A stretch of 64,000 bases of DNA from Escherichia coli (GTDB taxonomy: Bacteria > Pseudomonadota > Gammaproteobacteria > Enterobacterales > Enterobacteriaceae), in the NCBI RefSeq assembly GCF_016026235.1, contig NZ_CP065613.1, one strand, 5' to 3'. A program made the position numbers and the translations under genes. Below, piece after piece: positions 28,287 to 30,308 of the stretch. The first letter of the stretch is position 1; each line of letters opens with the position of its first letter. The notes under the pieces were generated by a model. It searched no databases. It had not been told where the DNA came from and worked only from the letters and a program-made list of their open reading frames with translations.

Positions 28287-28300
28287 TGACTGGTGTTAGA

Positions 28301-28603
<303 letters not shown>

Positions 28604-28632
28604 GAACAGTGTGCATTTTGGCAATAAATCTG

Positions 28633-28657
28633 AAACCAACTGTCATGTCGGTTTTTT
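28633..28657. repeat. 25-bp direct-repeat copy A (aaaccaactgtcatgtcggtttttt), 24/25 identical to copy B at 29109-29135
   Basis: Read directly from the sequence; the two copies bracket the small-ORF module. Confidence 0.7.
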
Positions 28658-28658
28658 A

Positions 28659-28687
28659 AAGGCCGAAGGTGGTAAACCTTCGGCCTT
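28659..28687 (-). terminator. Strong hairpin (11-bp stem aaggccgaagg / ccttcggcctt) 17 nt downstream of the small-ORF stop
   Basis: Perfect stem with a 7-nt loop; on the minus strand it is followed by a second weaker hairpin with a U-rich tail (copy A). Confidence 0.5.
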
Positions 28688-28703
28688 AGCTACGTTTCCT
28701 CAG

Positions 28704-28787
28704 TTATTCAATAAACTGACGGATCAGTTCCAGCAGCGCGATTAGCGCCTTAAGCACGATGAGAACTTTATCGAGAAAAGTTTTCAT
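28704..28787 (-). CDS. Candidate 27-aa type I toxin-like peptide (DinQ/TisB-like), MKTFLDKVLIVLKALIALLELIRQFIE
   Basis: ATG with a GGGAG RBS 8 nt upstream; amphipathic single-helix peptide; the LIALLELIR stretch matches my memory of E. coli DinQ; structured 3' end; candidate antisense RNA nearby. Confidence 0.45.
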   Translation of the reverse strand: MKTFLDKVLIVLKALIALLELIRQFIE

Positions 28788-29012
28788 CCGTTGCTCCCTT
28801 AAGGGAGAAAGACAATCACAGCTTACCCTTACGTTGCCTGTAACTATGATTTTCTTCATGTGCTAGATGAGGACTGCCTCTCTCCAAATTAGAGCACCAG
28901 AATCAGCACCACCTGTATCCTGACCAGGACTTAAAAGTACTTTTCCGCACTGCGGTAATCCCTTGAGGCAGTATCACTACTAGCGTCGGGATTGTATCGC
29001 CAACATAGCTGT

Positions 29013-29135
29013 TTGAATATGTAGGCATCCTGACTTATAATTCACTTGCTAGATGAGGACTGTTTCATTTCTGCCCGGAACCACCAAGTCTTGGGCGGAA
29101 AAAATAAAAAAACCGACTGTCATGTCGGTTTTTTT
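29013..29135 (+). ncRNA. Candidate small RNA: TTGAAT-17bp-TATAAT promoter (29013-29041), predicted start near 29048, terminator hairpin plus T7 at 29111-29135
   Basis: Near-consensus sigma-70 promoter and intrinsic terminator bracket about 88 nt with no ORF; the 5' end carries a 16-nt core (tgctagatgaggactg, 29047-29062) identical to 28861-28876 in the presumed leader of the toxin-like ORF. Confidence 0.35.
29109..29135. terminator. Bidirectional A-tract/hairpin/T-tract terminator (also terminates selU); direct-repeat copy B
   Basis: aaaaaaaccgac-tgtcat-gtcggttttttt; 63 nt downstream of the selU stop on the minus strand. Confidence 0.65.
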
Positions 29136-29198
29136 ATATCTGTATTCTGGTGCAACCATTCTGTTCTCACGACAATCGCCGTTTCAGAATACCGCCCA

Positions 29199-30308
<1,110 letters not shown>

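Follow-up and report, generated by a model that had tools for sequence, protein, structure and literature searches.

The closest described relative of the locus reported here is dinQ-agrAB, a type I toxin-antitoxin locus of Escherichia coli K-12 (Weel-Sneve 2013, PMC3567139; Kristiansen 2016, PMC5066626). Toxicity of the peptide and rescue by the small RNA (sRNA) have been shown for K-12 DinQ/AgrB (PMC3567139) and for DqlB/agrB of plasmid pOXA-48, which was experimentally validated in 2025 (PMC12365149). Homologues of dinQ that are not under SOS control make up the dql family; they are found on both chromosomes and plasmids of Enterobacteriaceae and are each accompanied by a cognate agrB-like RNA (PMC5066626). 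We analysed a stretch of 64,000 nucleotides of E. coli contig NZ_CP065613.1 (the window), in which two 25-bp direct repeats bracket a small module in the spacer between ybbP and mnmH (also called selU or ybbB). Our preferred interpretation, to which we give a probability of roughly 70%, is that the repeat-bracketed 477 bp is a chromosomal DinQ/AgrB (dql) type I toxin-antitoxin module, that the 25-mers are copies of its sRNA terminator, and that the repeats serve as a substrate for deletion. Judged here by sequence alone, the module is a chromosomal member of the dql family of Kristiansen 2016 (PMC5066626). The family is known, and the extra terminator copy acting as a deletion substrate adds a modest detail to it.

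A repeat search of the window located copy A, AAACCAACTGTCATGTCGGTTTTTT, at 28633–28657 and copy B, AAACCGACTGTCATGTCGGTTTTTT, at 29110–29134, both on the plus strand. The copies are identical at 24 of 25 positions, have the same orientation and are spaced 477 bp start to start. This agrees with a first-pass annotation of the same DNA, apart from its placement of copy B at 29109–29133, which was shifted by one base. No further occurrence was found in the window with up to three mismatches allowed, and none of 100 shuffles gave two matches to the 25-mer. The first-pass annotation had considered that the 25-mer might be a terminator repeat common throughout the genome, and the wider search gave no sign of this: the 22-nt core occurred at three loci when one genome was taken from each of 100,044 species (two of the three at the ybbP-mnmH site) and at 11 loci in metagenome contigs, all 11 at that site, which makes 13 of 14.

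The two copies differ in structure. Repeat search, Rfam, a terminator scan and folding placed copy B within a perfect 14-bp hairpin (29104–29137) that lies between an A7 and a T7 run, faces the mnmH 3′ end and is predicted to be terminator-like on both strands (dG −17.5 and −16.9). With its GC-containing stem, its A-run and T-run flanks and the convergent genes on either side, it has the features of a bidirectional intrinsic terminator, as the first-pass annotation had proposed for the boundary between selU and the sRNA. Copy A has one substitution in the stem, and the dG of its hairpin is −6.3 on the plus strand and −8.5 on the minus strand. It begins one base beyond the GC-rich 3′ hairpin of the toxin gene (28659–28687), also in line with that annotation.

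The toxin gene was identified on the minus strand at 28704–28787. The open reading frame (ORF) of 27 aa, MKTFLDKVLIVLKALIALLELIRQFIE, scored 40.9 bits against the NCBIfam profile NF041472 (toxin_DinQ; cut-off 30), with K-12 DinQ reaching 54.0 bits in the same run. Against the DqlB profile NF041473 it gave 24.5 bits, below the cut-off of 35. The Prokaryotic Genome Annotation Pipeline (PGAP) named an identical ORF dinQ in NZ_CP065615, from the near-identical strain FDAARGOS_943 (L006; L numbers denote the loci compared). The peptide was the same in all lineages, and the three nucleotide changes seen in a divergent clade, described below, were all synonymous. A longer ORF of 51 aa (28704–28859) was rejected as an over-extension of the 27-aa frame. 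A Shine-Dalgarno sequence, GGGAG, lies 6 nt upstream of the ATG (28794–28798, minus strand) and aligns with the corresponding region of K-12 dinQ. The mRNA is predicted to end at the minus-strand hairpin 28659–28687, an inverted repeat (AAGGCCGAAGG...CCTTCGGCCTT) that aligns with the terminators of K-12 dinQ and plasmid dqlB. From alignment to the K-12 dinQ promoter region, the putative −10 box of the toxin promoter is TACAAT (28991–28996, minus strand).

We also looked for a LexA box. No CTG-N10-CAG sequence occurred anywhere in 28616–29184, and the K-12 box falls in a 7-nt alignment gap, so that SOS induction of the toxin is unlikely despite the annotation as 'damage-inducible'. Three relaxed matches at five of six positions, two over the sRNA promoter and one after copy B, were rejected because a core half-site base is missing; one of them differs between alleles. 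The pipeline name 'damage-inducible type I toxin DinQ' carried in NZ_CP065615 is probably misleading for a paralogue free of a LexA box.

On the plus strand, an sRNA of about 89 nt (29049–29137) matched the full length of the Rfam AgrB model RF02891 with 53.6 bits (gathering score 40); orthologues gave 54.9 bits (L023) and 47.9 bits (L030). A promoter scan found TTGAAT-17-TATAAT at 29013–29041, matching at 10 of 12 positions, and its −10 box and the sequence downstream are conserved in the outgroup L030. With its first ~24 nt the sRNA is complementary to a stretch of the toxin 5′ untranslated region (UTR) upstream of the ribosome-binding site; this target site is predicted on the minus strand at 28855–28880. 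The dG for sRNA nt 1–40 was −55.5, compared with −26.8 ± 3.4 for shuffled sequences. A second direct repeat, 28855–28876 and 29041–29062 (20 of 22 positions identical), is explained by this arrangement, because divergent genes with complementary RNAs produce such repeats. Sub-threshold Rfam matches over copy B (STnc370, OrzO-P, RNAI and rimP) were driven by the terminator and were disregarded. The first-pass annotation had expected a self-contained toxin/sRNA module between the repeats, and a DinQ-type toxin with an AgrB-type sRNA was what we found there.

The 27-aa membrane toxin is predicted to be transcribed leftward and the sRNA rightward from its own promoter. By analogy with AgrB/dinQ and agrB/dqlB, pairing of the first ~24 nt of the sRNA with the toxin 5′ UTR would cause a translation block and cleavage. 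Copy B would then be the working terminator of the sRNA and, on the opposite strand, of mnmH.

Comparison with other agr genes bears on the origin of copy B. Its stem, AAAAAACCGAC/GTCGGTTTTTT, is common to copy B, to agrA and agrB of K-12 and to both agr genes of an IncI1 plasmid, while the terminator loops differ among the K-12 agrA/agrB and IncI1 plasmid loci. About 20 nt past copy B, ATATCTGTATTCTGGTGCAA, resemble the post-terminator sequence of K-12 agrA and agrB and of plasmid agr (for example ACATCTGTTGTTTCTGCAAA). These nucleotides, with the family motif A(T/C)ATCTG..TTCTG, form the first part of a post-terminator tail of the module at 29135–29184 (plus strand), which runs on into orthologous sequence in the outgroup L030. 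Since both the stem and the post-terminator motif are shared among agr genes, copy B is, by family resemblance, native to the sRNA gene and not borrowed from selU/mnmH. The first-pass annotation had offered, as its second option, a duplicated terminator that was recruited into a regulatory RNA; the direction appears to be the reverse, with the terminator belonging first to the sRNA and the extra copy being the duplicate. An identical 25-nt sequence, AACCGACTGTCATGTCGGTTTTTTT, loop included, was also seen in an AT-rich, unrelated contig of an uncultured Enterobacterales metagenome-assembled genome (L015, 3433–3560). There it is the terminator of a tRNA-Leu(CAA) gene, and the sequence that follows, ATGCCTGAATTC, is like the post-agr motif; the chance expectation for 22-mer matches of this kind is ~0.07.

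Homology to K-12 dinQ-agrA extends across the whole unit, from the toxin hairpin to a point ~15 nt beyond the agr terminator. In both loci the toxin and sRNA genes diverge, the hydrophobic 27-aa peptide contains the core LIALLELIR, the sRNA matches the AgrB model and has a 5′ end complementary to the toxin 5′ UTR, and the type of toxin hairpin and the sRNA terminator stem are the same. They differ in that the module has one sRNA gene where K-12 has two, and in that its toxin starts with ATG, has three extra N-terminal residues and no LexA box, and is followed by an extra terminator copy. The site is also different, being ybbP-mnmH and not gor-arsR. The plasmid dqlB loci examined have the same layout as the module, one of them with the same terminator stem. 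However, the toxin of the module scores as DinQ and not DqlB, the DNA identity is 68–77%, and the plasmid loci have no copy of the repeat hairpin downstream of the toxin. Plasmid records contained only such distant dqlB/dinQ loci (68–77%), apart from three near-full matches. One of these three, the PLSDB record CP061270.1 (H96), a 1.2-Mb 'plasmid', carries the module at 789023–789592 with 99.3% identity and is probably a mislabelled chromosome fragment.

Alleles of the ybbP-mnmH spacer were surveyed in 5,426 complete E. coli genomes. The module was present in 1,314–1,332 of them (~24%), with a median of one and a maximum of two copies per carrier, and it occupied one place in almost every carrier. 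By contrast with this variable presence, canonical dinQ-agrAB is near-universal (5,422 of 5,426), so carriers of the module have two members of the family. In a side comparison, ST131 strain EC958 matched only 47% of the K-12 dinQ locus. Comparison of empty alleles with the full alleles examined (L005, L006 and L016) defined a presence/absence segment of 569 bp (28616–29184) that holds the whole module and both 25-mers. In the empty alleles (L001–L004, including ATCC 25922), window position 28615 is joined directly to 29185 (...catgaacagcgtgca|cagaatccccc...), and this form was found in at least 585 genomes. No 25-mer copy, duplication or microhomology was present at the junction in L001–L004, and the repeats are internal to the indel, 17 nt and 50 nt from its ends. 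In most other genomes, unrelated sequence lies beside mnmH, for example an rhs element in K-12 or DUF2931 genes. The first-pass annotation had pictured a cassette that inserted or recombined into the selU terminator and duplicated its target. The idea of a self-contained cassette with a presence/absence polymorphism is borne out; insertion with target duplication is not supported, as the empty sites lack the 25-mer and the junction lies outside the repeats.

A synthetic junction query consisting of the left flank, one 25-mer and the right flank detected single-copy alleles in PapM-32-1 and PapRG-04-4 (L008 and L009), both from Gambian baboons, with the sequence ...aaatctgAAACCAACTGTCATGTCGGTTTTTTTatatctg.... 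In these strains, the left flank of copy A and its diagnostic base A6 are joined to the right flank of copy B. The closest flanks were those of full-module O145:H28 alleles, and the corresponding lengths, 1124 and 1601 bp, differ by exactly 477 bp. A third single-copy allele occurs in L014, which is labelled E. coli; its ybbP and mnmH are ~92–94% identical to the window, and its copy is in the G6/T16 form. Module-free alleles with one 25-mer, as predicted by the first-pass annotation, are thus present in three genomes. A pattern specific for the single-copy allele gave no match in metagenome contigs.

The product alleles of a deletion between the repeats are therefore observed in nature. As for the mechanism, recombination or replication slippage between direct repeats 477 bp apart would remove toxin and antitoxin together and leave one hybrid hairpin. 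Deletion between the repeats, and not a duplicated target, is the simplest reading of the single-copy alleles, a polarity that we infer. The pattern is like a deletion that leaves a solo long terminal repeat, in that two-copy and one-copy alleles differ by the exact spacing and the left flank of A meets the right flank of B; in contrast to that case, the repeats are 25 bp and not hundreds, they consist of a terminator hairpin that was duplicated, and they mark the ends neither of a mobile element nor of the segment. It also resembles agr copy variation at the canonical dinQ locus, where direct repeats with the agr terminator are gained or lost: agrA and agrB are 231 bp apart in K-12 (L007), and cM2a (L037) has a single agr and a gor-arsR locus 232 bp shorter. 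At the canonical locus, however, whole sRNA genes stand in tandem on one side of the toxin, whereas here the hairpin only is repeated and its copies bracket the toxin.

Other deletions affect the toxin without the sRNA gene. A common allele lacks 108 bp, window positions 28768–28875, between the imperfect 10-bp repeats GATGAGAACT (28758–28767) and GATGAGGACT (28866–28875). This deletion takes the start codon and Shine-Dalgarno sequence of the toxin and most of the sRNA target, with the sRNA gene intact (L005, 1050–1075; L022; L029). In ranked samples its frequency was very roughly 10–18% of carriers. A separate 71-bp deletion in a human-gut metagenome contig (L027), equivalent to ~28656–28724, begins in the T-run of copy A, extends into the toxin ORF and takes away the toxin terminator hairpin and the last codons; again the sRNA gene is intact.

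The age of the locus was assessed in more distant relatives. A divergent metagenome clade (L019, L023 and L028), whose flanks are 92–97% identical to the window, carries the full module at the same site with 96% identity. The outgroup L030 (Logan SRR31919996, 1222–1404) has 83% identity to the window in mnmH and ybbP; its ybbP stop codon leads directly into an orphan agr gene, and orthologous sequence follows up to mnmH. This agr gene retains the −10 box, is identical to the sRNA of the window in the 21 nt of its antisense 5′ end and shares the terminator stem but not the loop; the ybbP-mnmH spacer of L030 contains no toxin and no copy A. With an orphan agr gene beside mnmH in the outgroup, the agr-mnmH arrangement is, on this comparison, old. 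The unchanged 21-nt antisense in the orphan gene points either to a recent loss of the toxin or to a target elsewhere in that genome. For the empty alleles, secondary deletion is a likelier explanation than an unoccupied site. We thus picture the module as residing in an old, hypervariable ybbP-mnmH spacer, from which it would have been lost repeatedly through several different deletions.

Copy A has a different history from copy B. No change was seen in copy B in any full allele examined, over a range of lineages with flanking genes ~92–100% identical to the window. Copy A was present in every full allele as well, with lineage-specific substitutions: A6 in E. coli, and C16 together with a broken T-run in L019, L023 and L028, where it reads AAACCGACTGTCATGcCGGTTT(T)gTT and copy B is unchanged. 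As the hits to copy A are lineage-specific while copy B is unchanged, the two copies are taken to have been identical in the common ancestor, with independent hits to A since in each lineage. Divergence is 12% in the leftmost 42 nt of the segment, compared with 3.3% for the rest of the module, which is consistent with copy A drifting at roughly the neutral rate since the split of E. coli and its sister clades. K-12 has no counterpart of copy A, its dinQ terminator lying directly against the gor stop codon, and none was found in the four plasmid loci compared. Given its absence from other family loci and its near-neutral drift, copy A is most likely dispensable to the module, a relic left by a duplicated agr unit or by a patch of gene conversion.

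The flanks of copy A give some indication of how it arose. The 17 nt to its left (28616–28632, plus strand) show weak similarity to sequence upstream of the agr terminator and could be the remnant of a 5′-truncated agr unit. A local alignment to 29078–29109 had a score reached by 45 of 5,000 shuffles for the E. coli sequence and 163 of 5,000 for L023, which is suggestive only. Because this left flank is weakly similar and the right flank is the toxin terminator, the duplication is essentially that of the hairpin alone. One route would be a tandem duplication of the unit through the T-runs at its ends, after which the left unit was mostly lost; another would be an old agr remnant that was afterwards gene-converted from copy B. 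A circle integrating at a resident hairpin would also leave sharp edges, but would require a prior agr-derived hairpin. A rolling-circle or concatemer origin was rejected, as the sequences after the two copies are unrelated and those before them only weakly similar.

Several observations weigh against the interpretation of a deletion-prone resident module. L014 is about equidistant from E. coli and the L019 clade, so parsimony over the three deep lineages does not separate a one-copy from a two-copy ancestor. The flanks of PapM-32-1 and PapRG-04-4 differ from each other by 1%, and the nearest full allele to L008 is 99.1% identical, so that the deletion is not demonstrably recent. The edges of the repeat are sharp, an exact hairpin of 25–26 nt with poorly related sequence on the left and unrelated sequence on the right, and such edges are also expected from homologous integration of a circle at a resident hairpin. 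Finally, both A6 and C16 of copy A leave a G·U pair on the toxin strand and abolish pairing on the opposite one, so that copy A could have been maintained as a 3′ hairpin for the toxin mRNA instead of being a pure relic; the probability of this pattern by chance is about 0.25. Much of this would suit the model of the first-pass annotation, in which the hairpin already stood behind selU/mnmH and received the cassette later, either through a transposition that duplicated 25 bp of target or through a ~477-bp circle integrating by homology, and single-copy alleles would be sites still lacking the cassette. That such alleles occur in three genomes and two deep lineages, that the sharp repeat edges coincide with the hairpin, and that the L014 copy is the undamaged G6/T16 form all speak for it. 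We nevertheless consider it improbable. Empty alleles lack the hairpin, and the indel ends outside the repeats at a junction without duplication. The hairpin and the next ~20 nt are AgrB-family sequence, so any pre-existing site would itself be an agr remnant. Known transposases usually generate target duplications of 2–14 bp, and 25 bp is far longer. The ORF list of the region gave no transposase or integrase nearby, and no inverted repeat was found. The module sits at one place per genome among the genomes surveyed and had no match in the phage records searched, the pattern specific for single-copy alleles was absent from metagenome contigs, full modules lie on both sides of the deep split, and agr was already at the site in the outgroup. 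A more elaborate form, in which the terminator hairpin doubles as the attachment site of a minimal mobile cassette made up of toxin and sRNA, with a ~477-bp circle released by recombination between the two hairpins and re-entering any resident agr-type hairpin, seems to us still harder to credit. If it were true, type I pairs could hop between terminators without a dedicated recombinase, and the single-copy allele or an orphan agr would be the entry points.

A functional role of copy A is a better competitor, although we regard it as unlikely. In this reading, copy A would be a second 3′ hairpin of the toxin mRNA that completes termination or blocks 3′ exonucleases, and/or insulates the module from ybbP read-through, and its identity to copy B would reflect origin only. 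The toxin terminator has only three U after its stem, copy A and the toxin hairpin form tandem hairpins on the minus strand (dG −29.2), the independent substitutions A6 and C16 pair as G·U on the minus strand and as A·C on the plus strand, and copy A is retained in every full allele examined. On the other hand, the K-12 dinQ locus and plasmid dqlB loci function in its absence (PMC3567139, PMC12365149), copy A together with its left flank has diverged ~4 times faster than the rest of the module, a bias of two transitions towards one strand is readily expected by chance, and the tail that follows the hairpin on the minus strand, UUUCAGAUUUAUU, makes a poor U-tract. Far less plausible is a non-autonomous element of the IS200/IS605 type, like a palindrome-associated transposable element (PATE), that has subterminal hairpins of the same orientation, no terminal inverted repeats and no target duplication and depends for its mobility on a Y1 transposase acting in trans, for instance the RayT associated with repetitive extragenic palindromic (REP) sequences. 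The indel does lack target duplication and inverted repeats, its two hairpins are subterminal and equally oriented, and REP elements lie directly to its left. Yet the hairpin is an AgrB terminator that also occurs at non-mobile loci, a single genomic site is occupied in all 1,300+ carriers, the sister clades and the outgroup with no second insertion site found, and copy A decays freely. The idea that the repeats are a chance likeness of two ordinary intrinsic terminators, or a terminator motif common in the genome, can practically be set aside. Terminators do share an A-run, a GC stem and a T-run, and the contig of L015 has the same 25 nt behind its tRNA-Leu gene; but the six loop bases are identical besides the stem, no shuffle gave two matches, and 13 of the 14 loci lie at ybbP-mnmH.

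The surroundings of the module are variable. To its left, between the ybbP stop codon (28286) and the module, three tandem copies of REP/bacterial interspersed mosaic elements (BIME) were detected at 28300–28610, with Rfam scores of 79 and 77 bits for naRNA4 plus a partial copy, and 40.4 bits for ES036; their number ranges from 0 to 3 among alleles. To its right, mnmH is encoded on the minus strand at 29199–30293, according to the ORF list and the annotation of L006, with its stop codon 61 nt (29138–29198) from the copy B hairpin. The spacer is hypervariable, holding an rhs element and ylbG remnants in the K-12 type (L017), three DUF2931 genes in H105 (L018), and elsewhere the toxin module or nothing. 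The break points beside mnmH vary as well (window 29185, 29197 and 29208). Two further mnmH contexts were rhs- or helix-turn-helix-gene-type alleles and uninformative, and Citrobacter had a different synteny. When the window was compared with Escherichia sp. E1V33 (L016) over 28291–29203, the module was 99.65% identical, mnmH 94% and the ybbP 3′ end 98%. The density of single-nucleotide polymorphisms jumps in 29147–29203, near the right end of the module, which suggests a recombination breakpoint or a recent exchange of the module.

These results reveal no new mechanism; they concern a known toxin-antitoxin family and add a tidy evolutionary detail to it. They correct an annotation, in that a toxin called 'damage-inducible' has no LexA box. 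The natural alleles illustrate routes by which a chromosomal type I pair can be lost, namely hairpin-to-hairpin excision, toxin-only deletions, loss of the whole segment and, in the outgroup, an orphan antitoxin. Together, the full, toxin-deleted, single-hairpin and empty forms make up an isogenic-like set of natural alleles for studying a second DinQ-family module in about a quarter of E. coli strains.

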